From: Chloroflexota bacterium
GTDB taxonomy: Bacteria; Chloroflexota; Dehalococcoidia; DSTF01; JACRBR01
Direction: 5' to 3'
DNA length: 64,000 bases
Assembly (NCBI GenBank): GCA_031400455.1
Contig: JANNPX010000025.1
Coordinates: 64,345 to 128,344, forward strand
Below the pieces are notes generated by a model. That model made no database searches, was not told the DNA's origin, and worked only from the letters and a program-made list of their open reading frames with translations. This document shows, piece by piece, positions 51,817 to 64,000 of the stretch; positions within the stretch are counted from its first letter, which is position 1, and the number at the start of each line of letters is the position of its first letter. Made by a program: the position numbers and the translations under genes.

Positions 51817-54288
51817 TCACGCGGACGCTTTGGCCAGCTCGGGCTCGTCGGCCGATTCGTCGACGGGGCCCTTCCACTCGCACTTCGTGCATTTCGCCTC
51901 ACTCTTGCCCGCCATGACGACGAGGCCGGCGCAGTCCGGGCAGGGTTGCTTCAGCGGGCGCGTATTGCTCGTGAAGTCACAGGCAGGATACTTCTCGCAC
52001 CCGTAGAAGGTGCGCGCGCGGCCCCGGCGCGTCTTGCGCTCGATGATCTCGCCGCCATCCTTCGGGCAAAGTACGCCGATCTTCTGCGCGATCGAGCGTC
52101 GCGTCTTGCACTCTGGATACTGCGTGCACTCGAGGAACTGGCCGAACGGGCCGCGCTTGCTCACCATGGGCGACTCGCAAACCGGGCACTTCTCGTCGGT
52201 GGGCTGCGGTTCGGGCGCGGCGTCCTCGCCCAGCGGGCGGGAGCTCTTGCAGTCGGGAAATCCGCTGCACGCGAGGAACTGGCCGAAGCGCCCCCAGCGG
52301 ACGATCATCGGCTTGCCGCACTTCTCGCACTTCTCGTCCGTCTGCTGCTCGACGCGGGGAACGTCGACGACCCGCCCGAGCGCGAGTTCCAGCGGATCGT
52401 AGAACTCTTGGACGACGGTCGGCCAGGCGCGCTCGCCGTTGGCCACGTCGTCGAGTTCGTCTTCCATGCGCGCGGTGAAGCCCACGTCCACGACTTCCGG
52501 GAAGTGCTCCGTCAGCATGTCGCTGACGATGAATCCCAACTCCTCCGGCTTCAGTGCGCGTCCATCCTTCAGCACGTAGTTGCGGTCTTGAATCGTCGAC
52601 ATGATGGCCGCGTACGTGGACGGGCGGCCGATGCCGTTCTCTTCGAGCGCCTTCACGAGCGTTGCTTCCGTGAAGCGCGGCGGCGGCTCGGTGAAGTGCT
52701 GGTCGGGCGTGACCTGGAGCAGGCGTAGCAGGTCGCGCTCGTTGAGGTCGGGCAGCGTCTTCTCCGCGTCCTCATCGTCGTCGGTGTCCCGGCCCTCGAT
52801 GTAAACCTGCCGGAATCCCGGGAACCGCATGTGGCTGGCGGACGCGCGCAGCAGGTAGGGCGCCGGTTGCGTATCGACGGCCGCGTCGATTTCGGCGCTG
52901 ACCTGGTCGAACACAGCGTCCGCCATCTGGCACGCGAGGAACCGCTGCCAGATGAGCGTGTAGAGTTTGGCCTGGTCACCCGTCAACGACTTGCTCAGAC
53001 TCGCAGGGTCGCGGAAGGCCGATGTCGGACGGATCGCTTCGTGGGCCTCTTGCGCGCCCTTCGACTTCGTCTTGTAGAAGCGCGGTTCGGTCGGCACAAA
53101 GTCCGCGCCGTAGCGCTGCGCGATGGCGCCCCGCACCTCGTTGCGCGCGGTCTCTGCGATGTTCAGCGAGTCGGTGCGCATGTAGGTGATGAGACCGACC
53201 TGACCCTGGCCCGGTACCTTCAACCCTTCGTAGAGCTGCTGCGCAACGGCCATCGTGCGCTTGGCCGAGAACCCGAAGCGGCGTGAGGCTTCCTGCTGCA
53301 GCGTGCTCGTCGTGAACGGCGGCGAGGGCCGGCGCAACTGCTGCTTCTTCTTCACGTCGCGCACGCTGTAGGCCGCGCGCCGCAGATCGGCGGTGATCGT
53401 CTGCGCTTGTTCGCCCGTGCCGATTTCGGCCTTCTTCGTGCCGGGCAGGCCGGCGAGACGTGCGGCAAACGCCTGGCCGTCGGCGTCCGCCTGCTTGGCG
53501 AGTTGCGTCTCGATCGTCCAGTACTCCTGCGGCACGAATGCCTGGATCTCGCGCTCGCGGTCGACGACCATCTTCAACGCAGGCGACTGTACGCGGCCCG
53601 CGCTCAGCCCGCGGCGGATCTTGCTCCAGAGCACGGGGCTGATCTTGTAGCCGACGAGGCGGTCGAGGACGCGGCGTCCCTGCTGGGCGTCGACGATGCG
53701 CATATCGATCTCGCGCGGGTGCTCAAAGGCCTCGTGGATGGCGTCCGCCGTGATTTCGTGGAACTCGACGCGCTGGTATCCCTTCGTCGCCAGGTCCATC
53801 GCTTCCATGAGGTGCCACGAGATCGCCTCGCCCTCGCGGTCGGGGTCTGTGGCGAGGTAGACCTGCTTCGCGTCCTTGGCGGCAGCCTTGAGCTGCTTGA
53901 CGACTTCCTTCTTGTCCTTCGGGACGATGTAGCGCGGCGCGAAGCTGTCGTCGACGTTGACGCCTAGCTGCGACTTCGGCAGGTCGCGCACGTGGCCGAT
54001 CGAGGCGCGCACATCGTAGTCGCGGCCCAGAATGCTCGAGAGGGTGCGCGCCTTCGCGGGGGACTCGACGATAACGAGCCGCTTGCCCTTGGCGCTACGG
54101 GTCGTCGGCGCGTTGGCGCCAGCTGCCTTTGAGGGCGCCTTCTTCTTCTTGGCAGCCGGCTTCTTTTTGGCGCCCGCCTTCTTGGCAGCCGGCTTCTTCG
54201 CCTTGGGAGGCGCGGGAGCCTTTACCTCTATAGGCGTGATCGCCTGTCCGGTGCCGGTTGGGGCTTCGATGCCCATTTCGTCTGCCAT
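51817..54288 (-). CDS. topA: DNA topoisomerase I with Lys/Ala/Pro-rich N-terminal tail and four C-terminal zinc ribbons
   Basis: TOPRIM LVIVESPAKA and the active-site Tyr region. KAKKPAAKKAGAKKKPAAKKKK tail. Four Cys4 ribbons near the C-terminus. Confidence 0.92.
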   Translation of the reverse strand: MADEMGIEAPTGTGQAITPIEVKAPAPPKAKKPAAKKAGAKKKPAAKKKKAPSKAAGANAPTTRSAKGKRLVIVESPAKARTLSSILGRDYDVRASIGHVRDLPKSQLGVNVDDSFAPRYIVPKDKKEVVKQLKAAAKDAKQVYLATDPDREGEAISWHLMEAMDLATKGYQRVEFHEITADAIHEAFEHPREIDMRIVDAQQGRRVLDRLVGYKISPVLWSKIRRGLSAGRVQSPALKMVVDREREIQAFVPQEYWTIETQLAKQADADGQAFAARLAGLPGTKKAEIGTGEQAQTITADLRRAAYSVRDVKKKQQLRRPSPPFTTSTLQQEASRRFGFSAKRTMAVAQQLYEGLKVPGQGQVGLITYMRTDSLNIAETARNEVRGAIAQRYGADFVPTEPRFYKTKSKGAQEAHEAIRPTSAFRDPASLSKSLTGDQAKLYTLIWQRFLACQMADAVFDQVSAEIDAAVDTQPAPYLLRASASHMRFPGFRQVYIEGRDTDDDEDAEKTLPDLNERDLLRLLQVTPDQHFTEPPPRFTEATLVKALEENGIGRPSTYAAIMSTIQDRNYVLKDGRALKPEELGFIVSDMLTEHFPEVVDVGFTARMEDELDDVANGERAWPTVVQEFYDPLELALGRVVDVPRVEQQTDEKCEKCGKPMIVRWGRFGQFLACSGFPDCKSSRPLGEDAAPEPQPTDEKCPVCESPMVSKRGPFGQFLECTQYPECKTRRSIAQKIGVLCPKDGGEIIERKTRRGRARTFYGCEKYPACDFTSNTRPLKQPCPDCAGLVVMAGKSEAKCTKCEWKGPVDESADEPELAKASA

Positions 54289-54611
54289 CAGCTTCTTTCT
54301 TCTCCTGCCCACGCAGGCCCCGAGTGTTATACACGACGCGGACGGCGGCACAACAGCTTCTTCGGTTGGGGGTACGTCCGTCTGAATACGGCCGCAGCCG
54401 CGTTCAGAACCGGCGATTCACCCTCAACGTCAGTGGGTCGCTGCTCTTCGAGCGTAGCAGGCCATGTCAAGCCCGGCGCGCTGGGAGCGTCAAATCAGCC
54501 CTCGCCGACGCTCGGCGACCGACACGTGAGAGTGACAGAGGCCACGGCACGGGCGTACCCGCGGAGCTTCAGCTCCGCCCCGCTCATCGCTTCGAGCTGA
54601 GAGCATCGAAG

Positions 54612-54652: not shown

Positions 54653-55192
54653 CTACGGCGTGGCGAGCAGTTTGCGCACCAGCGGCGGCATCAGTGCGGC
54701 GAGCGGCGAGGCCGGTTCGGAGACGTCGTTGACTTCGAACCCTCGCGGCGTCGTGCGCCACGTGCGGTAGCCACCGACGGGGATCTTGAGCCGCTTGCAG
54801 ATACGCTTGGCCGCGGCGCCGTAGCCGACGGGCACGTAGAGGTAGAAGATCTGATCGGGGATGGCCGCGTATCGCGCCCAGGCGCGCTGCGCTTCGCCCT
54901 CGGTTACGCCTTCGATGTCGACGACCGCAGCCGTCATCACCAGCTTCGTCTCGCCGGTGCTCACCTTCTCGACGACGATGATGTCCGGCGCGATCTGCTC
55001 GTCGCCGACCTGCACGGCCATCGTCACCGCCGGCACGTTACTGTGCGCCCGGTACGCCGGGTGCTCCTTCGTTGGGAAGGTGAACCGCGCCTCGACCACA
55101 CCCTGCACCGCCTTCACGAGCGACTCATCCTTCGAGCGCGTGGTCCGGTTCAGCAGCGTATCGACGTCTTCCCAGCGCGTATCGAGAGTCAT
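54653..55192 (-). CDS. hypothetical protein
   Basis: Possible PD...ExK arrangement (PDIIVVEKVSTGETK); GGAGGG RBS; no firm family. Confidence 0.45.
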   Translation of the reverse strand: MTLDTRWEDVDTLLNRTTRSKDESLVKAVQGVVEARFTFPTKEHPAYRAHSNVPAVTMAVQVGDEQIAPDIIVVEKVSTGETKLVMTAAVVDIEGVTEGEAQRAWARYAAIPDQIFYLYVPVGYGAAAKRICKRLKIPVGGYRTWRTTPRGFEVNDVSEPASPLAALMPPLVRKLLATP

Positions 55193-55263: not shown

Positions 55264-55351
55264 TGGCGGAGGGGGTGGGATTCGAACCCACGGTGGTTTG
55301 AGCCACAACCGTTTTCAAGACGGTCTCCATAGTCCACTCGGACACCCCTCC
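55264..55351 (-). tRNA. tRNA-Ser (anticodon UGA), CCA encoded
   Basis: GGAGGGGTGTCCGAGTGG...ACCGT-cTTGAaa-ACGGT...long variable arm...GTGGGTTCGAATCCCAC-CCCTCCGCCA, 88 nt. Confidence 0.9.
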
Positions 55352-55515: not shown

Positions 55516-56802
55516 GTGAAGATCTGCTTCCTCATGTACCAGGGCAACATGTACTCGGGCGGGCAGGGCGTATACCTGTTCTACCTGACGCGCGAACTGG
55601 CGCGCATGGGGCACGAGGTGCATGTCATCGCAGGGCCGCCGTACCCGACACTCGATGAGCGCGTGACGACGCACAACGTCACCGACTACAGCTACTGGAC
55701 GTACCACCACTACAAGAAGGACTTCGTCTTCAACCGGCCGCCGCTCAGCTACTTCCACCCGGTCAACCTCTACGACTTCATCTCGACGCGCATCGCCCTG
55801 TCGTCGCTGCTGGCGAACTTCAGCGTGCGGGCGTACTTCAAGCTGCGTGAGCTGGCGCGCGAGCATCGATTCGACGTCGTGCACGACAACCAGACGCTGA
55901 GCTACGGAGTCTGGGCAACGCACGCAAGCGGCTTTCCGCTGGTGGCGACGATCCACCATCCGCTGTCGTACGACCTGAAAAACCAGCTCCGGCAGGCGCG
56001 CTCCACGTACGAGAAGGCACGTCGCATCCTCTGGTCGCCGTGGTACATGCAGGAGTGGACGGCGAAGAGCGTCGACCGCGTGATCGTCGTGTCCGAGACA
56101 TCGCGCGTCGACGTCGAGGAGGCGTTCCAGCTTCCACCCGAGAAGGTGCGCACCGTGTACAACGGCATCGACGTCGACACCTTCCGGCCGCTGCGGGGTG
56201 TCGAGCGCCAGCCCGACAAGCTGCTGTACGTCGGCAACTCCGAGGATCGCAACAAGGGCGCGCGCTACTTCCTCAAGGCGCTCGACATCCTCAAGGACGA
56301 GATTGACTTCCGCGTCACCTTCGTCGACAACGTGAAGCACAACCTGAAGCTGGCGCCGAAGCTGGTCGATGACTACGGCCTGAATTCGCGCGTCGACTTC
56401 ACCGGCCGCATCCCGACGGAAGACCTCGTGCGCCACTACAACGAGGCGAAGCTGCTCGTCACGTCGTCGGTACACGAGGGGTTCGGGCTGCCGCTCGCGG
56501 AGGCGATGTCGTGCGGCACGCCGACCGTCGCGACCGATATCGGCGCGTACCGGGAGATCGTCGAGCACGGCAAGAGCGGCTGGCTGGTGCCGCCGTCCGA
56601 TCCGCGGGCGCTTGCGGACGCGATCCGTATGATGTGGAATGACGTTGGCCTTCGTCAGCGGCTCAGCGAGGGCGGCCGCCAGCGCATCGAGGAGAAGTTC
56701 AACTGGCGGAAGGCCGCCGAGGAGACGCTGGCCGTGTACGAGGAGATAGTCCCGGCCAAACGCCGCACCTTCGCCATGCCGGAACAGGTTCCGGGCGCGT
56801 AG
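55516..56802 (+). CDS. GT4-family glycosyltransferase (GT-B, PimA-like), paralog 1
   Basis: GTG start; MYQGNMYSGGQGVYLFYLTRELARMGHEVHV; C-terminal EX7E-like region. Confidence 0.85.
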   Translation: MKICFLMYQGNMYSGGQGVYLFYLTRELARMGHEVHVIAGPPYPTLDERVTTHNVTDYSYWTYHHYKKDFVFNRPPLSYFHPVNLYDFISTRIALSSLLANFSVRAYFKLRELAREHRFDVVHDNQTLSYGVWATHASGFPLVATIHHPLSYDLKNQLRQARSTYEKARRILWSPWYMQEWTAKSVDRVIVVSETSRVDVEEAFQLPPEKVRTVYNGIDVDTFRPLRGVERQPDKLLYVGNSEDRNKGARYFLKALDILKDEIDFRVTFVDNVKHNLKLAPKLVDDYGLNSRVDFTGRIPTEDLVRHYNEAKLLVTSSVHEGFGLPLAEAMSCGTPTVATDIGAYREIVEHGKSGWLVPPSDPRALADAIRMMWNDVGLRQRLSEGGRQRIEEKFNWRKAAEETLAVYEEIVPAKRRTFAMPEQVPGA

Positions 56803-56817: not shown

Positions 56818-57588
56818 TTGCCCGACAACATCGTCAACGTCGATTTCAAGCGCCACTTCCAAATCGAGCCCGGCGAGCGCGTGCTTGACCTCGGCTGCGG
56901 CAACGGCCGTCACACCATGGAAGCCGCGCGCTACCCCGGGCGTATCGTCGGCCTAGACTTCTCACGCGATGATCTGGTTGCGGCCAAGTTCATGTACGAC
57001 GATATGGTGCGGCAGGGGAAGATCCGCGGCCGCGCCGACTTCATCGTCGGGGACGCCCAGAACCTGCCGTTCAAAGACGGAGCGTTCGACAAGTCTCTCT
57101 GCACCGAGGTCTTCGAGCACATCCCGGACGACCGCCGCGGCATCGCGGAGTTCCTGCGCGTCACGAAGCCTGGCGCGCAGACGGTCGTCAGCATCCCGGC
57201 GTACTGGCCGGAGCGGGCGTACTGGGCGCTGAGTTGGGATTACTGGCACTCGCCGGGCGGACACGTGCGGTGGTACCGTCCGGGGCAGATGCGGCAGATC
57301 CTCGAAGAGAGCGGTATGGATGTCGAGTTCCAGCGGCGGCGGCATTCGTCGCAGAGCTTCTACTGGTTCCTGCGCTGCATCCACGGCCTGCCGAACGAGA
57401 ACTTCTTGCCGGTGCGCCTGACGTGGAAGCTGATCAACGTCCACCACAACCGCCGCCTCAAGCTGCTCGAATACATCGAGACGATCGCGAACCTCGTCAT
57501 CGGCAAGGATCTGATCCACTACGGCCACAAGCGCGGAGCGGCGAAGACGGCCGAGCCGGCGCACGAATTTGCCGGCGTGTCGCGCTAG
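56818..57588 (+). CDS. class I SAM-dependent methyltransferase, paralog 1
   Basis: VLDLGCGNGRH and LPFKDGAFD; TTG start. Confidence 0.8.
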   Translation: MPDNIVNVDFKRHFQIEPGERVLDLGCGNGRHTMEAARYPGRIVGLDFSRDDLVAAKFMYDDMVRQGKIRGRADFIVGDAQNLPFKDGAFDKSLCTEVFEHIPDDRRGIAEFLRVTKPGAQTVVSIPAYWPERAYWALSWDYWHSPGGHVRWYRPGQMRQILEESGMDVEFQRRRHSSQSFYWFLRCIHGLPNENFLPVRLTWKLINVHHNRRLKLLEYIETIANLVIGKDLIHYGHKRGAAKTAEPAHEFAGVSR

Positions 57589-57605: not shown

Positions 57606-59000
57606 ATGACCATCCAGAACGCGAGGCGCCTGCCATCTTCGGCGGAGATGACCGAGCGGTTGCAGTCGTGGATCGAGCGCTTTCGCGTTACCGGCGCGTC
57701 GATCGCTTGGATGCACGGCGACGAGGTCGCGACCGCTGCGGCGGGCGCAATTAACCTGAACACGGGCGTCGACGTCACGCAGGATACGCTGTTTCAGATC
57801 GGCTCGATTACCAAGATCTACACGACGACGCTGATCATGCAGCTCGTGGATGAAGGGCGGATCGAACTCGACGCGCCGGCGACGAATTACCTTCCCGAAC
57901 TGAGGTTCGGCAACGGAACAGCGTCGCGCACAGTCACAATCCGCCAGTTGCTCACGCACACGAGCGGCGTTGATGGCGACTTCTTCGACGACTTCGGGCG
58001 TGGCGACGATTGTGTTGAGAAGTACGTGGCTGCGTGCGGGAACCTGCCGGAGGTCTTCCCGGCCGGCACCATGTGGTCGTACTGTAATGCCGGCTTCGTG
58101 GTGCTTGGGCGCATCGTCGAGTTGATGACCGGCATGAACTGGGACGCCGCACTCAAGACGCGCATCCTCGACCCGATTGGCGCGTCCCACACTGTCACGC
58201 TTCCCGAGGTGGCGCTGTTGCACCGCACGTCTGTTGGACATGGATTCAACCTATCGCTACAGATCGAGCGCAGCCCGTACTGGAATCTCGCGCGTGCCGC
58301 CGGACCGGCAGGAGCTACTCCGTGCGCAACGGCGGCGGATCTGCTGACGTTCGCGAAAGTGCACATCGACGGCGGCGTTGCCGTAGGCGGCGCGCGCGTC
58401 CTGTCCGAAGCGTCCGTCCGGGCGATGCAGCAGTCGCAGTTCGACCTGCCGCGGGTGCCCGGTGAGGGAGCAGCGCACTGGGGACTCGGCTGGATGCTGT
58501 TCGACTGGGACGGGCGCCGAGTCATCGGCCACGACGGCGGTACGATCGGCCAGCTCTCGTCTCTGCGCATCCTGCCCGAGGAGCGCTTCACCGTTGCTGT
58601 CCTGACCAACACGACCCCAACGGGCGGGTTGCTCGGTAGCCGTGTCATGCGCTGGCTGTTCGAAGAGACGCTTGGCATCGAGATGCCGGCGCGGCCGAAG
58701 CCACCGGAATCGCCGGTAGAGATGGATGTGCGACCTTACGCCGGCGTGTACGAGCGGCTCGGGCTGCGCGTGGACATAGCGGAGAAGGACGGTCAGCTGT
58801 CGGCGAAGTACACGGGCAGCGGTGCGCTCTCGGATCTTCAAATCGATCAGCCGCCATACGACCTGATACCGGTCGAGCACGGGCTATTCGTCGAGAGGAA
58901 CCCATACACGGGGACGTACGCTCCCGTGACGTTCAGTGGATTTGAGAACGGGCGTCCGCGCTTTATAGAAGCGACACGCGTCGCACGGCGCGTAGGCTAG
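57606..59000 (+). CDS. serine hydrolase, beta-lactamase/transpeptidase fold (class C / esterase-like)
   Basis: SxxK motif IGSITKIY and later YxN/HxG-like elements; start trimmed to the ATG at 57606. Confidence 0.8.
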   Translation: MTIQNARRLPSSAEMTERLQSWIERFRVTGASIAWMHGDEVATAAAGAINLNTGVDVTQDTLFQIGSITKIYTTTLIMQLVDEGRIELDAPATNYLPELRFGNGTASRTVTIRQLLTHTSGVDGDFFDDFGRGDDCVEKYVAACGNLPEVFPAGTMWSYCNAGFVVLGRIVELMTGMNWDAALKTRILDPIGASHTVTLPEVALLHRTSVGHGFNLSLQIERSPYWNLARAAGPAGATPCATAADLLTFAKVHIDGGVAVGGARVLSEASVRAMQQSQFDLPRVPGEGAAHWGLGWMLFDWDGRRVIGHDGGTIGQLSSLRILPEERFTVAVLTNTTPTGGLLGSRVMRWLFEETLGIEMPARPKPPESPVEMDVRPYAGVYERLGLRVDIAEKDGQLSAKYTGSGALSDLQIDQPPYDLIPVEHGLFVERNPYTGTYAPVTFSGFENGRPRFIEATRVARRVG

Positions 59001-59043
59001 CTCCCTGCGTCGGCGCGCCGCAATCCGCTACCATGCCCCCGAT

Positions 59044-60489
59044 ATGGTGTCCACGCTCGACCGCTTCCAGTCCATCGATCCCGCGCTGCTCGATATCGGG
59101 CCCGCGGATCGCGTCATCGATCTGGGCTGCGGCACGGGGCGTCACGTGCTGGAACTTTCGAAGATCCCGGCCGACATCATCGGCGCTGACATCTCGCGCA
59201 CCGATATCCGCGCCGGGCGCTACCTGCTCGAGATCATGCGGCGACGCGACGAAGTGAAGGCGCGCGTCCACTGGCTGCAGACGGCGGGGGAGCGGCTGCC
59301 GTTCAAGGATGGCGCCTTCGACCGCGTCATCTGCACCGAGACGCTGGAGCACGTCGACGACGAACACGTGCTGGCGCGCGAGCTGGCTCGCGTGCTCAAG
59401 CCAGGGGGCATCCTGGCGATCAGCGTGCCAGACGAGTACTCCGAGAAGGTGTTCTGGAAGCTGTCGAAGAACTACCGCACGCATGCTGGTGGGCATGTCC
59501 GCATCTTCGGCCGCAGTGAGATCGTGCGCCTCATGCGCACATCCGGGCTGGAGCCGTACGCCGTTCGCTATCGTCACTCGCTCGAGACGGTGTACTGGCT
59601 CAGCCACGTCGCGTTCTGGAGCGACTGGGGCAAGCAGGGGCCGATCACCAGCGCCTTCCGCCGCATCCTCGACTCGCAGCGGGCGCGCGCATCCGGCATC
59701 GTCACCGCGCTCGATGACATCGGCAACCGCATCCTGCCGAAGAGCATCGTCGTATACAGCCGCAAACCGCTGCAAGGCGCGTCGCGCAACGGCGCGAGCA
59801 CCAACGGACACAGCCTCGTCGATATCGACGAGCGCACGAAGGTGGAAGTGCGAGCCGTACCAGCGCCGTTCGCCATCGATCCGGGCGCGCCGGTTGTCAC
59901 GGGTGACATCCCCGCGACCGCATTCTCATTGAAGGACGAACTGCGCATCGCGCTCAAGCTCGATCCGGAGCCGCAGAAGGCGCGGCTGATCGAGCTGCTG
60001 CGCTCGTGCCGCTTCAGCATGATGCGCGAAGTGCAGGCGCTCAGCGGCGAGCAAGCGTCGACGCCGTGGACGCCCGACGGCCGCTCGATGAAGGAGATTG
60101 TCGGGCACATCACGGGGTGGGAACGCTGGGCGACGGCCGCCCTCGATCAGATCGCGACGGGCGTCTCGGAGCCGTCCATCATGTCGCTCAGCGGCTACCC
60201 GGAGGGCATCCGCCGCTACGGTTCGGTCGAGGCGTTCAACGCCGCGCGCATGGGCGAAGCGCGCGAACAGCCATGGGCGGAGATCCTCGAGCAGAGCGAC
60301 GCGATCTTCGACGCACTGATCGCCGCAGCCGAACGTACGCCAGCCACGTCGCTATCACAGACCGCCGATTTCTTCTGGCCGGATCTCGGTGGGACGGTCC
60401 CTTGTGGCATGTATCTGCTGATGGTCTCCGCGTACCACTACCAGGAGGAACATCTGCCAGAGGTTGTCGGGCGAGTTGGTAGTTCGTAG
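59044..60489 (+). CDS. fusion: class I SAM methyltransferase (paralog 2) + C-terminal ClbS/DfsB-like (DUF1706) four-helix-bundle domain
   Basis: N-terminus: VIDLGCGTGRH and LPFKDGAFD. C-terminus: IVGHITGWERW ... AYHYQEEH. The stop TAG lies inside the heptamer array. Confidence 0.65.
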   Translation: MVSTLDRFQSIDPALLDIGPADRVIDLGCGTGRHVLELSKIPADIIGADISRTDIRAGRYLLEIMRRRDEVKARVHWLQTAGERLPFKDGAFDRVICTETLEHVDDEHVLARELARVLKPGGILAISVPDEYSEKVFWKLSKNYRTHAGGHVRIFGRSEIVRLMRTSGLEPYAVRYRHSLETVYWLSHVAFWSDWGKQGPITSAFRRILDSQRARASGIVTALDDIGNRILPKSIVVYSRKPLQGASRNGASTNGHSLVDIDERTKVEVRAVPAPFAIDPGAPVVTGDIPATAFSLKDELRIALKLDPEPQKARLIELLRSCRFSMMREVQALSGEQASTPWTPDGRSMKEIVGHITGWERWATAALDQIATGVSEPSIMSLSGYPEGIRRYGSVEAFNAARMGEAREQPWAEILEQSDAIFDALIAAAERTPATSLSQTADFFWPDLGGTVPCGMYLLMVSAYHYQEEHLPEVVGRVGSS

Positions 60490-60529: not shown

Positions 60530-60892
60530 GTGCAGGACTATAAGAAGCTCAAAGTGTGGGAGAAATCGCACGCGCTGACGCTCGCGGTCTACCGCGCCAC
60601 AAGCAAGTTCCCCAAGCACGAACAGTACGGGCTCGTCAGCCAACTGCAGCGCTGCTCCAGTTCCGTGCCGTCGAATATTGTCGAAGGTTGCGGCCTCAAC
60701 ACGAAGCCCGAACTTCTCAAGCATTTGCACTATGCGATGGGCTCGGCGAAAGAGATGGAATACCAGCTGCTACTTGCGAAGGACCTCGGCTACGTTCCGA
60801 ATGCGGCGTACGAATTGCTTGCGAAGGATGTGGACGAAGTCGAACGCATGCTCTCCGCCCTGATCTCGACGATCCGCCGAGGCAGCGCGTAG
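60530..60892 (+). CDS. four-helix-bundle protein (23S rRNA intervening-sequence protein / Avd-like family)
   Basis: WEKSHALTL...QLQRCSSSVPSNIVEG...GSAKEMEYQLLLAKDLGY is the typical signature of this family. GTG start. Markedly lower GC. Confidence 0.8.
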   Translation: MQDYKKLKVWEKSHALTLAVYRATSKFPKHEQYGLVSQLQRCSSSVPSNIVEGCGLNTKPELLKHLHYAMGSAKEMEYQLLLAKDLGYVPNAAYELLAKDVDEVERMLSALISTIRRGSA

Positions 60893-60899
60893 CGTGGAA

Positions 60900-60934
60900 G
60901 AACTACAAACCACAAACTACGAACTACAAACTCC
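60900..60934. repeat. STRR-like heptamer array, inverted orientation (right flank of the 4HB gene)
   Basis: GAACTAC AAACCAC AAACTAC GAACTAC AAACTCC, the reverse complement of the left-flank type. Confidence 0.8.
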
Positions 60935-60953
60935 CCTCAAAATCGCCTTCATC

Positions 60954-62216
60954 ATGTACCAGGGCAACATGTACTCGGGTGGGCAGGGCGTCTACCTGCA
61001 CTACATCACGCGCGAGCTCGTGAGACTGGGGCACGAAGTGCACGTCATTTCGGGGCGGCCGTATCCGCGGCTCGTCGATGGCGTCGTACACCACAAGCTG
61101 CACACCTACACGCTGTGGGCGTTTCTCGACGGGCGCGACGAACTGGCGTACAACGACGCGCCGTTCGCAATGCTGCACCCGTGGAACTTCTACGAGTTCG
61201 CTTCGACGCGCGTGTCGCTCGGCTCGCTGTTCTTTTCGTTCAGCGTGCGCGCCTACCAGAAGCTCGCTGAAATCGAGCGCCAGTACGGGCCGTTCGACCT
61301 CGTGCACGACAACCAGACGCTCGGTTACGGCATCCTCGCCATGAAGAAGCTGATGGGCAAACCGGTCGTCGCGTCGCTCCACCACCCGCTCGCGATCGAC
61401 AAGGCGAACAACTTGCGGGAGGCGAAGACCGTCGTCCGCCGCCTCTCGCGCGAGATCTGGTTCCCGGGACGCATGCAGTCGATCGTCGCGAACGGCATCG
61501 ACATGATCTTCACGGGATCGCGGAACTCCGCGCAGAGCGTCAGCGCATCGATGGATATCCCGCTCGAGCACATTCGCCAGACGCCGTACGGCGTCGACCA
61601 CGAGATCATGCACCCGCTATCCGACGCCGCGCGCGTCCCCGGTACGATCCTCTTCGTCGGCGACTCCGAAGACCGAAACAAAGGCGCACGCTTCCTCATC
61701 GAAGCCTGCGCGCAGCTGCAGCACGACACCGACTTCCGCCTGCTCTTCAAGGACAAGAAGGAGAGGGATATGACGGTCGTGCCGCCGCTCGTCTGGAAGC
61801 ACGGGCTGCAGCGATTCGTCGAGTACATCCCGCGGCTGGAGACCGACGAACTGGTGAGGCTCTACAACAGCGCCCAGATCGTCGTGTCGCCGTCGCTATA
61901 CGAAGGCTTCGGCCTGCCCGCTGCCGAGGCGATGGCCTGCGGCGCCGCAGTCATCGCAACGACGGCCGGCGCCTTTCCGGAGTTCATCGAGGACGGCCGC
62001 ACCGGCATCCTCGTCCCGCCCGGCGACGCCGACGCGCTGGCCGCCGCCATCCGCTCGCTGCTTGCTGATCCCGAACGCTGCGTCCGCATGGGCGCCGCCG
62101 CGAGCGAGCACATCCGCACGAACTTCACCTGGGAGCGCACGGCGAAGATCACGCTCGACCTGTACGGCGAGGTGCTGGCGAAGCAACCCCGTCGTCCCAC
62201 ATCCATCGTCTCGTAG
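60954..62216 (+). CDS. GT4-family glycosyltransferase, paralog 2 (possibly 5'-disrupted)
   Basis: MYQGNMYSGGQGVYLHYITRELVRLGHEVHV. The ancestral MKI... start is now LKI (CTC), so translation must begin at the ATG at 60954 or the GTG at 60894. Confidence 0.7.
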   Translation: MYQGNMYSGGQGVYLHYITRELVRLGHEVHVISGRPYPRLVDGVVHHKLHTYTLWAFLDGRDELAYNDAPFAMLHPWNFYEFASTRVSLGSLFFSFSVRAYQKLAEIERQYGPFDLVHDNQTLGYGILAMKKLMGKPVVASLHHPLAIDKANNLREAKTVVRRLSREIWFPGRMQSIVANGIDMIFTGSRNSAQSVSASMDIPLEHIRQTPYGVDHEIMHPLSDAARVPGTILFVGDSEDRNKGARFLIEACAQLQHDTDFRLLFKDKKERDMTVVPPLVWKHGLQRFVEYIPRLETDELVRLYNSAQIVVSPSLYEGFGLPAAEAMACGAAVIATTAGAFPEFIEDGRTGILVPPGDADALAAAIRSLLADPERCVRMGAAASEHIRTNFTWERTAKITLDLYGEVLAKQPRRPTSIVS

Positions 62217-62324: not shown

Positions 62325-62708
62325 ATGACAATCGAAACATCCCAGAACCGACCCGGCGACGCGCATGCCGCAGCCTCCTGCCCGGATGGGGTCGCGCTTG
62401 TGCGAGGCACGCCCGCGGCGCGTGATACTCACGCCGGTATCGCTCGCGTGATCGCCAATGGCGACGACATCGCCAGGATTCAGCCGGACGACGTGCTGGT
62501 CTGCGCGGTCGTGTCTCCGATCATGCTTGCGGCGCCCATCGGCGCGCTCGTGGCCGACGTCGGCGGCATGCTTTCGAATCCGGCGATCATTGCTCGGGAG
62601 CGGGGTATTCCCGCAGTCTTCGCGACGCGCGACGGCACGCAACGTATCCGCGATGGCCAGCGCATCGCGGTTGATGGCGCGCGTGGCGTCGTGACGATCC
62701 TCGAGTAA
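62325..62708 (+). CDS. stand-alone PEP-utilizing-enzyme mobile domain protein with His->Asn at the phospho-acceptor position
   Basis: GGMLSNPAIIARERGIPAV versus the consensus GG.TSHAAIIARE.GIP. Confidence 0.6.
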   Translation: MTIETSQNRPGDAHAAASCPDGVALVRGTPAARDTHAGIARVIANGDDIARIQPDDVLVCAVVSPIMLAAPIGALVADVGGMLSNPAIIARERGIPAVFATRDGTQRIRDGQRIAVDGARGVVTILE

Positions 62709-62733: not shown

Positions 62734-63684
62734 TCACGCGTCCTGCACGCACCTGAATCCCATATTCCCCGTCGAGCTGCCCGGCGTGTTGGCGCTGCGC
62801 GCGGCGACGCGATAGCGGTAGCAGTACGACTCGTGGCAGAGGTACGAGCCGCCGCGGATGACGCGATGTGTGCCGTCGGGAGGGCCTGCGGGATTCCCGC
62901 GCGGGCCATCGATGTGGTAGCGGGGGCTGAACCAGTCGGCGCACCACTCCCACGCGTTGCCGGACATGTTGTACAGGCCGAAGCCGTTCGGCGCGAACGA
63001 ATCGACCGGCGCGGTGCCGTAGTACCCATCGGCGACGGTGTTGGTGCGCGGAAACTCGCCCTGCCAGATGTTGCAGCGATGCTCTCCGCCCGGCGTCAGC
63101 TCGTCGCCCCACGGATACCGCTTCTGTTCGAGGCCGCCGCGCGCCGCGTACTCCCACTCTGCCTCTGTCGGCAGACGCGCGCCCGCCCACGCGCAATACG
63201 CCATTGCGTCGCCCCACGTGACGTGCACGACGGGATGCTGCCCTCGCAGGTCGATATTTGAATGCGGGCCTTCGGGATGGCGCCAGTTCGCGCCCTCGAC
63301 TTCACGCCACCACGGGGCGGCGGCGACGCCGCGCGTGTCGGGGAAGTCATCCGGCAGCAGGCCGCCGAATACGAACGATGCCGCGAAACGCTCGGCGTCG
63401 GTCACGTACGCCGTGGCGGTGACGAACGCGGCGAAGCGCTCGTTGCTGACGGCCGTGGGGTCGATCCAGAACGGCCGCACCGACACGCGCCGGACTGGCC
63501 CCTCGCCGTCCTGCGGATATCCAACACCGTTGTCCGTCCCCATCAGGAACGAGCCACCCGGTAGCAACGCCATGCGGGGAGTCGAGTCGGCCGATCGCAG
63601 AGTCGCCTTGGAGACAGGCCGGGGGTGAGGTGCTCGATCTGCCGCGGGCGCACAGCACGCAGAGTCGCGCTCGTCCTCACACAT
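62734..63684 (-). CDS. formylglycine-generating enzyme (SUMF1/FGE) family protein
   Basis: FGE-sulfatase domain (WGDAMAYCAWAG, RGGSY, GFRCV); start trimmed to MCEDE, which is uncertain. Confidence 0.75.
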   Translation of the reverse strand: MCEDERDSACCAPAADRAPHPRPVSKATLRSADSTPRMALLPGGSFLMGTDNGVGYPQDGEGPVRRVSVRPFWIDPTAVSNERFAAFVTATAYVTDAERFAASFVFGGLLPDDFPDTRGVAAAPWWREVEGANWRHPEGPHSNIDLRGQHPVVHVTWGDAMAYCAWAGARLPTEAEWEYAARGGLEQKRYPWGDELTPGGEHRCNIWQGEFPRTNTVADGYYGTAPVDSFAPNGFGLYNMSGNAWEWCADWFSPRYHIDGPRGNPAGPPDGTHRVIRGGSYLCHESYCYRYRVAARSANTPGSSTGNMGFRCVQDA

Positions 63685-63733
63685 CTCGATCCTCTGCGCT
63701 CTCTGCGGCTCTGCGGTGAATCCCGTCGCACAT

Positions 63734-64000
63734 CTACTGGCGCGCCATCTCGATCCGCGCCTCCTGCTCGAGGTCCCGCGGCGGCTCCGGCCCCGATACA
63801 TCGACGATGACCCTGCGCAGCGTGCCCGTGAACCGGAACGGCGAAGCGTAGTCGTTCGTCACCGGATTGCCCTCGTCACGCCCGACCTGGAAGCCGACGC
63901 CCAGGCCGAACAGGAACGGCACCGTGCGCGGGATCTGTCCCTCGCCGCACGCCTGCCCGTTGATGTACAGCCGGAGCACGCCGCCCGGACCGAACGGCTG
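63734..64000 (-). CDS. sulfatase, C-terminal fragment (gene continues beyond the window)
   Basis: Typical sulfatase C-terminus; FGE lies immediately downstream. Confidence 0.5.
   Translation of the reverse strand, partial: QPFGPGGVLRLYINGQACGEGQIPRTVPFLFGLGVGFQVGRDEGNPVTNDYASPFRFTGTLRRVIVDVSGPEPPRDLEQEARIEMARQ

Follow-up and report, generated by a model that had tools for sequence, protein, structure and literature searches.

A MeT3-like methyltransferase with a predicted DinB-fold domain in a candidate methylated-glycan operon of Chloroflexota

What task would join an S-adenosylmethionine (SAM)-dependent methyltransferase and a DinB-type helical bundle in a single polypeptide? In this study, we addressed this question for a gene of a Chloroflexota bacterium of the class Dehalococcoidia (assembly GCA_031400455.1, contig JANNPX010000025.1), which lies at 59044-60489 on the plus strand of a 64,000-nucleotide stretch of DNA, hereafter called the window, and which is an open reading frame (ORF) of 481 amino acids (aa) from ATG to stop. 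An original prediction, made from the letters alone, had read the product as a class I methyltransferase fused to a ClbS/DUF1706-like domain, an architecture that its author had not seen described and that, in this view, could couple methylation with hydrolysis or thiol transfer on one substrate. We propose here, with moderate confidence, that the protein is an O-methyltransferase of a methylated-glycan pathway with an accessory metal-binding DinB module. On balance, the operon that encodes it appears to be related to the ManT and MeT3 elongation and methylation module of actinobacterial methylmannose polysaccharide (MMP) synthesis, a context that the original prediction had missed.

A conserved gene with two domains

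The coding region can be divided as follows; pLDDT is the predicted local distance difference test score of the structural model, and dN/dS the ratio of non-synonymous to synonymous substitution rates.

59044-60489, plus strand: the whole ORF, a MeT3-like methyltransferase fused to a predicted DinB-fold domain (481 aa; Pfam, homologues, AlphaFold2 model)
59044-59769, plus strand: class I SAM methyltransferase domain, aa 1-242 (Pfam, homology to the Nonomuraea locus L023 described below, Foldseek, invariant columns to Pro242)
59770-59928, plus strand: linker, aa 243-295, variable in length and sequence and predicted to be disordered (pLDDT below 50-60; dN/dS 0.24)
59929-60477, plus strand: predicted DinB-fold helical-bundle domain, aa 296-478 (AlphaFold2, Foldseek, and DinB_2, MDMPI_N and DUF1706 matches)
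60106-60108, plus strand: codon of the invariant His355, inside IVGHITGWERW and aligned with His67 of YfiT (alignment, profile)
60436-60453, plus strand: codons of the invariant His465, Tyr466 and His470 and of the near-invariant Glu469 (HYQEEH) in the last helix (alignment)

The assignment of the N-terminal ~250 aa to a class I methyltransferase was borne out by all approaches used. Over aa 18-171, the Pfam families Methyltransf_23 and Methyltransf_11 match with E ~1e-21 and Methyltransf_25 with 1e-18 (77 bits for PF08241 against a cutoff of 21.2, and 77.3 bits for PF13489 against a cutoff of 27). The SAM motif VIDLGCGTG is found at aa 24-32, with D26, G28, G30, G32 and D49 invariant in 36 sequences, and a Foldseek search with the full-length model returned only small-molecule or sugar O- or C-methyltransferases, namely RebM, AtmM, TleD and MitM, with E ~1e-13. 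No transmembrane segment is present in the protein, in which the highest 19-residue Kyte-Doolittle mean is 1.1, and it is probably a soluble, cytoplasmic two-domain enzyme.

The same architecture is widespread. A search of 5.8 billion proteins, from which 120 homologues were listed, gave more than 110 full-length homologues among the matches listed, which are 446-570 aa long and 50-92% identical; all of these have the methyltransferase part, most have precomputed DinB_2 or DUF1706 matches, and the assemblies behind them, from NCBI, JGI, ENA and Logan, are independent. The few shorter matches are fragments on contigs of less than 2 kb, and a split pair of methyltransferase and DinB genes was found neither in the 120 listed homologues nor in any related locus examined. 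The named homologues all belong to Chloroflexota/Dehalococcoidia metagenome-assembled genomes and are annotated only as 'class I SAM-dependent methyltransferase', and a genome scan gave 21 related loci, again all from Chloroflexota. These proteins are thus already deposited in public databases under generic annotations, though no paper describing the architecture was found in the searchable literature. When 36 proteins were aligned, invariant columns were seen throughout the methyltransferase as far as Pro242 and again between Glu299 and His470, but not in the variable stretch that separates them, at about aa 243-295. In a comparison with the orthologue of locus L002, dN/dS was 0.07 for the methyltransferase, 0.24 for the linker and 0.13 for the C-terminal domain, and both domains are under purifying selection. 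A frameshift or an assembly error, which had been considered as a possible source of the fusion, can be excluded because more than 110 listed homologues and 21 loci share the fusion, which is under this selection. Long ORFs in other frames, such as 58963-59811 on the minus strand, are expected because the DNA of this region has a G+C content of ~66%; they are artefacts of composition and not genes.

The C-terminal region is DinB-like, as had been predicted, and its position within the DinB clan could be defined more closely. In a scan of the full-length protein, DinB_2 scored 22.7 bits (cutoff 24.8), MDMPI_N was also below threshold and MST gave a faint match (E 0.07). When aa 261-481 were scanned alone, DinB_2 reached 24.2 bits and MDMPI_N an E-value of 1e-4, and DUF1706 matched over profile positions 6-156 of 166 with 19.8 bits (E 8e-4), below its cutoff of 24.2; with aa 293-481 alone, DinB_2 scored exactly 24.8 bits, the cutoff itself. 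The E-values of DinB_2 for the domain scanned alone ranged from 3e-5 to 5e-5. Among 26 family members, with matches counted at E<=1e-4, DinB_2 was matched in 25 (best E 8e-12), DUF1706 in 20 (best E 1e-8) and MDMPI_N in 14 (best E 1.1e-7), and the DUF1706 cutoff was passed by the homologues P0002 (26.1 bits), P0018 (24.6 bits) and P0036 (30.3 bits). Judged by these profile scores, the domain is a member of the DinB clan that falls between DinB_2 and DUF1706, a description more exact than 'ClbS/DfsB' because DinB_2 outscores the sub-cutoff DUF1706 match in this protein.

The full-length AlphaFold2 model has a mean pLDDT of 81 and a predicted TM-score (pTM) of 0.50 and consists of two confident domains with a disordered segment, aa 246-292, between them; the relative orientation of the domains is therefore undefined. 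Because Foldseek with this model gave methyltransferase matches alone, aa 293-481 were modelled separately, which resulted in a helical bundle with a short hairpin (pLDDT 94.6, pTM 0.90). The top 50 PDB matches of this domain model were all DinB-fold proteins, with TM-scores of 0.5-0.67. The best E-values were those of YfiT (1e-3), mycothiol-dependent maleylpyruvate isomerase and the Mycobacterium tuberculosis mycothiol S-transferase, and the best TM-scores those of ClbS (7mtl_B, 0.67/0.76; 6anr, 0.64/0.71), with 5civ at 0.54/0.60; DfsB, IRC4 and the N-terminal domains of EgtB, OvsA and SenA were matched as well. As modelled, the domain has a DinB-type four-helix-bundle fold. The part of the original prediction that concerned ClbS therefore stands for the fold, for the closest TM-score and for the DUF1706 matches across the family, and is less exact as a family assignment of this protein. 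On the sequence level, the single domain sequence had no match among PDB sequences, and two profiles of the domain matched YfiT only, both marginally (E 0.007 and 0.075). In the first of these, His355 is aligned with His67 of YfiT, presumably a metal ligand in the YfiT structure.

Within the C-terminal domain, His355, His465, Tyr466 and His470 are invariant in the 36-protein alignment and Glu469 is nearly so; also conserved are W362, W411 and W445 and a helix face made up of R314, E317, R320, S321 and R323. The ligand set of the candidate metal site may be His/His/His or His/His/Glu. The ClbS comparison had been built on the motifs IVGHITGWERW and AYHYQEEH. Both are present, at aa 352-362 and 463-470, respectively, and the comparison of motifs was sound, given that the related SHLTAWE and HYxEH occur in true DUF1706/DinB_2 repeat proteins. 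It has been reported, however, that ClbS and DfsB are without the DinB metal motif (PMC10693628), and since the three invariant histidines are kept here, a ClbS-like mechanism is not implied. The domain looks ClbS-like in shape and metalloenzyme-branch-like in its conserved residues.

An exhaustive profile search against 1.84 billion representatives gave just one cluster at E<=1e-30, and this was the fusion family. The next matches are stand-alone proteins of ~200 aa, 22-33% identical, most of which have no Pfam match or a weak one to DinB_2; they keep the histidines of the domain and the motifs DGR..QVVGHIA.W[DE]R and EH..VEH. These proteins, among them P0124, P0129, P0131 and P0132, are the nearest relatives of the domain and form an unannotated DinB-clan subfamily, and no recurring neighbour gene was seen for P0124, P0129, P0131 and P0132 on their short contigs. 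Elsewhere, related DinB-clan domains occur in fusions with small-molecule enzyme domains such as glyoxalase and GNAT.

The operon and its relation to methylmannose polysaccharide synthesis

A substrate class for the methyltransferase is suggested by the genes around the fusion.

55516-56802, plus strand: GT4a, a ManT-like glycosyltransferase, first gene of the operon, core (7QSG at E 2e-57 over the full length; syntenic in 16 loci)
56818-57588, plus strand: MT1, a stand-alone MeT3-like methyltransferase, core (Pfam; paralogue of the fused methyltransferase)
57606-59000, plus strand: serine hydrolase of beta-lactamase fold, probable insert (PF00144, E 7e-64; synteny)
60530-60892, plus strand: four-helix-bundle protein of the 23S rRNA intervening sequence protein family, 120 aa, apparently an optional insert (PF05635, E 2e-36; TIGR02436)
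60894-62216, plus strand: GT4b, a second ManT-like glycosyltransferase, core (7QSG at E 7e-58; adjacent in 13 loci)

The core order is GT4a, MT1, the fusion gene as third member, and GT4b. It is kept from GT4a through MT1 to the fusion in 16 of the 17 loci that have enough upstream DNA, and GT4b adjoins the fusion in 13 loci, in three of these inverted. A subgroup of ~50% identity has a compact operon of GT4, methyltransferase, fusion and GT4 genes with overlapping stop and start codons (L024, 4901-9609; L025, 2-5826). The fusions of this subgroup are 446-448 aa long with a shorter linker, and L025 has a third GT4 gene downstream. A promoter and terminator scan, which was otherwise uninformative, gave no plus-strand terminator inside the cluster.

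GT4a and GT4b are 44% identical to each other and both match the PDB entry 7QSG over their full length with ~35% identity, the next GT4 structures following at 1e-23 to 1e-26 and MshA/BshA at 1e-18 to 1e-22. 7QSG is ManT, the alpha-(1->4)-mannosyltransferase of the mycobacterial 3-O-methylmannose polysaccharide (PMC9883506). The methyltransferases lead to the same pathway. In a tblastn search of 7.3 Gb of plasmid records, the best match to the methyltransferase of the fusion was a Nonomuraea gerenzanensis methyltransferase encoded directly after a ManT homologue (E 2e-35), the next-best methyltransferase match having an E-value of 7e-12. The Nonomuraea locus (L023; NZ_LT559118.1, 10953000-10967000) contains the following genes.

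ManT: E 4.5e-144 to 7QSG
7278-7988 of L023: methyltransferase in the pMeT3 position, between the ManT and MmpH genes
MmpH: E 7e-121 to 7QSJ
MeT1: E 8e-77 to 6G7D

By these matches, the locus is a canonical complete MMP cluster, with ManT, a pMeT3-like methyltransferase, MmpH and MeT1. Its record is an 11.85-Mb chromosome that PLSDB lists among the plasmids and that has hardly any annotation, and the cluster adjoins a GDP-mannose 4,6-dehydratase-like gene. Aligned with the methyltransferase in the pMeT3 position, aa 10-242 of the fusion are 36% identical (E 2e-45) and MT1 is 34% identical (E 2e-51), in both cases end to end; the fused domain and MT1 are 32% identical to each other over the whole length. 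The end of the fused domain, PKSIVVYSRKP, corresponds to GKSVVLYVRKP of the Nonomuraea protein, and an ending of this type is common to MT1 and the fused methyltransferase.

Several neighbouring genes appear to lie outside the core. The serine hydrolase gene is probably not a part of it because its insertion between MT1 and the fusion is limited to the window, L006 and L007; the best NCBIfam match of the product is the methyl acetate hydrolase AcmB, far under the model cutoff, and the hydrolase may be an esterase with an acylated glycan as substrate or simply the product of a passenger gene. The gene of the four-helix-bundle protein is found at this position in 11 of 20 related loci with 56-94% conservation, less than its flanks, coincides with a dip in G+C to ~0.60 and has a weak Avd/bAvd match; GT4b is sometimes inverted in loci without it. 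It looks like an optional or mobile insert.

Directly upstream of the operon there is a tRNA-Ser(TGA) gene (55264-55351, minus strand), and beyond it the topoisomerase I gene (51817-54351, minus strand; TIGR01051, E 6e-251). A 179-aa ORF at 54653-55192 on the minus strand is conserved with 64-88% identity on the opposite strand upstream of GT4a in nine related loci. It has no match in Pfam or NCBIfam, and its stretch DIIVVEK is nuclease-like, by eye only. Downstream, 62325-62708 on the plus strand encodes a stand-alone mobile (swivel) domain of phosphoenolpyruvate-utilizing enzymes (127 aa; PF00391, E 7e-15), for which catalytic partner domains are lacking; none of the related loci has a counterpart. 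It is followed by a gene of the formylglycine-generating enzyme (FGE)-sulfatase family at 62734-63801 on the minus strand (PF03781, E 7e-90), which also matches the C-terminal domains of SenA and EgtB. The FGE fold is the partner of the DinB domain in EgtB and OvoA, and a split OvoA/EgtB-like system was therefore considered. It was rejected: the FGE matches are generic, and no functional link between this gene and the fusion is supported since the gene lies on the opposite strand and the three closest relatives, L002-L004, are the only ones in which it is a neighbour.

Possible roles of the DinB-fold domain

According to the model that we favour, GT4a and GT4b would use a nucleotide sugar to assemble an oligo- or polysaccharide in the cytoplasm, and the methyltransferase domain (aa 1-242) would O-methylate sugar residues of this glycan with SAM as donor. 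The tethered DinB-fold domain, which may bind a divalent metal via His355, His465 and His470/Glu469, would act on, or hold, the same glycan. MeT1 and MmpH are separate enzymes for chain-end steps in actinobacteria, and because the operon has neither the end-capping enzyme MeT1 nor the hydrolase MmpH, our preferred guess, made with low confidence, is that the DinB-fold domain serves to process or to recognize the chain end. That it is a new metal-dependent carbohydrate-active module, serving in priming, capping, or cleavage and recycling at the chain end, seems rather unlikely to us. Should that reading be true, the DinB fold would gain its first glycan-processing activity, and a polymethylated-polysaccharide system would be known outside Actinomycetota for the first time.

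A number of observations weigh against this model. In tblastn searches with the Nonomuraea queries, neither MmpH nor MeT1 was found in the window or in loci L001-L022, and homologues of GDP-mannose dehydratase were likewise absent from the window and the related loci. The identities to ManT and MeT3 are just 32-36%, so that the pathway may involve another sugar, another linkage and another position of methylation. GT4b is not adjacent to the fusion in four loci, in which crude ORF calls in high-GC DNA gave no obvious common downstream gene. The undefined domain orientation in the full-length model lends no support to a common substrate of the two domains, and the histidines of the last helix are spaced as HxxxxH, one residue more than the usual HxxxH. 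Furthermore, no report of a methylated polysaccharide from Chloroflexota was found in the searchable literature, nor a paper on a MeT3-like protein or a ManT/MeT3-type operon outside actinobacteria, and pMeT3 of the MMP cluster is itself described only as a 'putative' 3-O-methyltransferase (PMC9883506).

Of the other explanations, the one that survives best, which we consider possible but doubtful, is that the DinB-fold domain is non-catalytic and functions in dimerization, as a scaffold or in glycan or lipid binding, oligomerizing the methyltransferase or docking it to the GT4 proteins, in analogy to the C-terminal non-catalytic region of the polymannan chain terminator WbdD. A flexible linker would suit such a tethered accessory module, the many invariant tryptophan and arginine residues could make up a binding surface, MT1 weakly matches WbdD methyltransferase structures, and DinB-superfamily proteins are mostly homodimers (PMC10693628). 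However, the residues at the DinB metal-site positions, three histidines and one glutamate, vary little or not at all over ~50% divergence and are kept in the stand-alone ~200-aa relatives, which one would sooner expect of a catalytic or metal site than of an interface. If the domain is merely a dimerization module, the fusion would be a case of ordinary domain accretion.

It is unlikely that the domain is instead a DinB-type thiol S-transferase or thiol-dependent enzyme of the YfiT/BstA, mycothiol S-transferase or maleylpyruvate isomerase kind, coupling thiol chemistry to the methylation of a small molecule, with the GT4 proteins making a sugar-containing low-molecular-weight thiol or conjugate. 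This idea draws on the Foldseek E-values, which are headed by YfiT, the maleylpyruvate isomerase and the M. tuberculosis S-transferase, on the MDMPI_N and MST matches in Pfam, on YfiT as the sole PDB profile match, aligned at the histidine that we take to be a metal ligand, and on the secondary similarity of the GT4 proteins to MshA and BshA. The GT4 proteins are far nearer to ManT, however (1e-57 against 1e-18 to 1e-22), the methyltransferase domain is an end-to-end homologue of a sugar-polymer methyltransferase, and no deacetylase, cysteine ligase or other thiol-pathway gene was found in any related locus. An MshA/BshA-type thiol pathway was rejected on the first and the last of these grounds.

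A ClbS-like role, in which the domain would be a metal-independent hydrolase of an electrophilic natural product or a DNA-binding protector and the fusion a self-resistance or detoxification enzyme, is very improbable. It would agree with the top TM-scores of ClbS, with the matched structures of the DfsB family and with the DUF1706 matches in 20 of the 26 family members. Against it stand the three invariant histidines, the DUF1706 score below cutoff for the 481-aa protein, the absence of a polyketide or nonribosomal peptide synthetase cluster nearby in the window and in the related loci, and the way in which the gene is locked in a glycosyltransferase and methyltransferase operon. An artefact joining two genes, of which the disordered linker is the only suggestive feature, is hardly conceivable given the same fusion in more than 110 listed clusters from independent assemblies, in 21 loci and in the ~50%-identical subgroup.

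Polymethylated polysaccharides, MMP and the methylglucose lipopolysaccharide, are regarded as an actinobacterial speciality with a presumed role as fatty-acid chaperones. With a conserved ManT/MeT3-like operon in uncultured Dehalococcoidia, this chemistry would reach into another phylum, and the obligate fusion would provide a testable handle both on the function of the large and poorly understood DinB superfamily and on how a glycan may be started or terminated without MeT1 and MmpH.

Comparison with known systems

In OvoA, too, a SAM methyltransferase and a metal domain of DinB fold are parts of a single polypeptide, and the N-terminal domains of EgtB, OvsA and SenA are among the fold matches of the C-terminal domain. 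Here, however, the domain order is reversed, the fusion has no FGE domain and the methyltransferase belongs to another subfamily. YfiT/BstA, the mycothiol S-transferase and the maleylpyruvate isomerase are linked to the domain by the top Foldseek E-values and by the alignment of His355 with His67 of YfiT, and the domain has an invariant histidine set. It differs from them in an identity of only 13-14%, in its HxxxxH rather than HxxxH spacing and in that no thiol pathway is evident.

The likeness to ClbS and DfsB is one of fold, ClbS having the best query-normalized TM-scores (0.64-0.67), and the motifs G(G/R)xS.K[DE]..xH..xWE and HY.EH are common to the domain and to proteins that score with DUF1706. 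In contrast to ClbS and DfsB, the domain is under the DUF1706 cutoff (19.8 against 24.2 bits), keeps its histidines and is fused rather than a stand-alone protein of ~170 aa, and its gene lies in a glycosyltransferase and methyltransferase operon with no colibactin, toxin or pks-like genes nearby.

The closest parallels are found in the MMP system. The MMP cluster of ManT, pMeT3, MmpH and MeT1 and the Chloroflexota operon are both small, self-contained cytoplasmic systems, as predicted from their genes, with a ManT-like GT4 glycosyltransferase and a MeT3-like methyltransferase. The Chloroflexota operon differs in that it has two GT4 and two methyltransferase paralogues in the order GT-MT-MT-GT (GT, glycosyltransferase; MT, methyltransferase) and a DinB-fold domain in addition, and is without the (alpha/alpha)6 hydrolase and the MeT1-type 1-O-methyltransferase. 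With the Nonomuraea methyltransferase in the pMeT3 position, the methyltransferase domain aligns end to end, including the C-terminal lid and the terminal motif, and both are encoded beside ManT-family GT4 genes; whereas pMeT3 is actinobacterial, the protein described here is from Chloroflexota, the methyltransferase is duplicated as MT1 and the fused domain, and the fusion adds a linker and a predicted DinB-fold domain of 185 aa.

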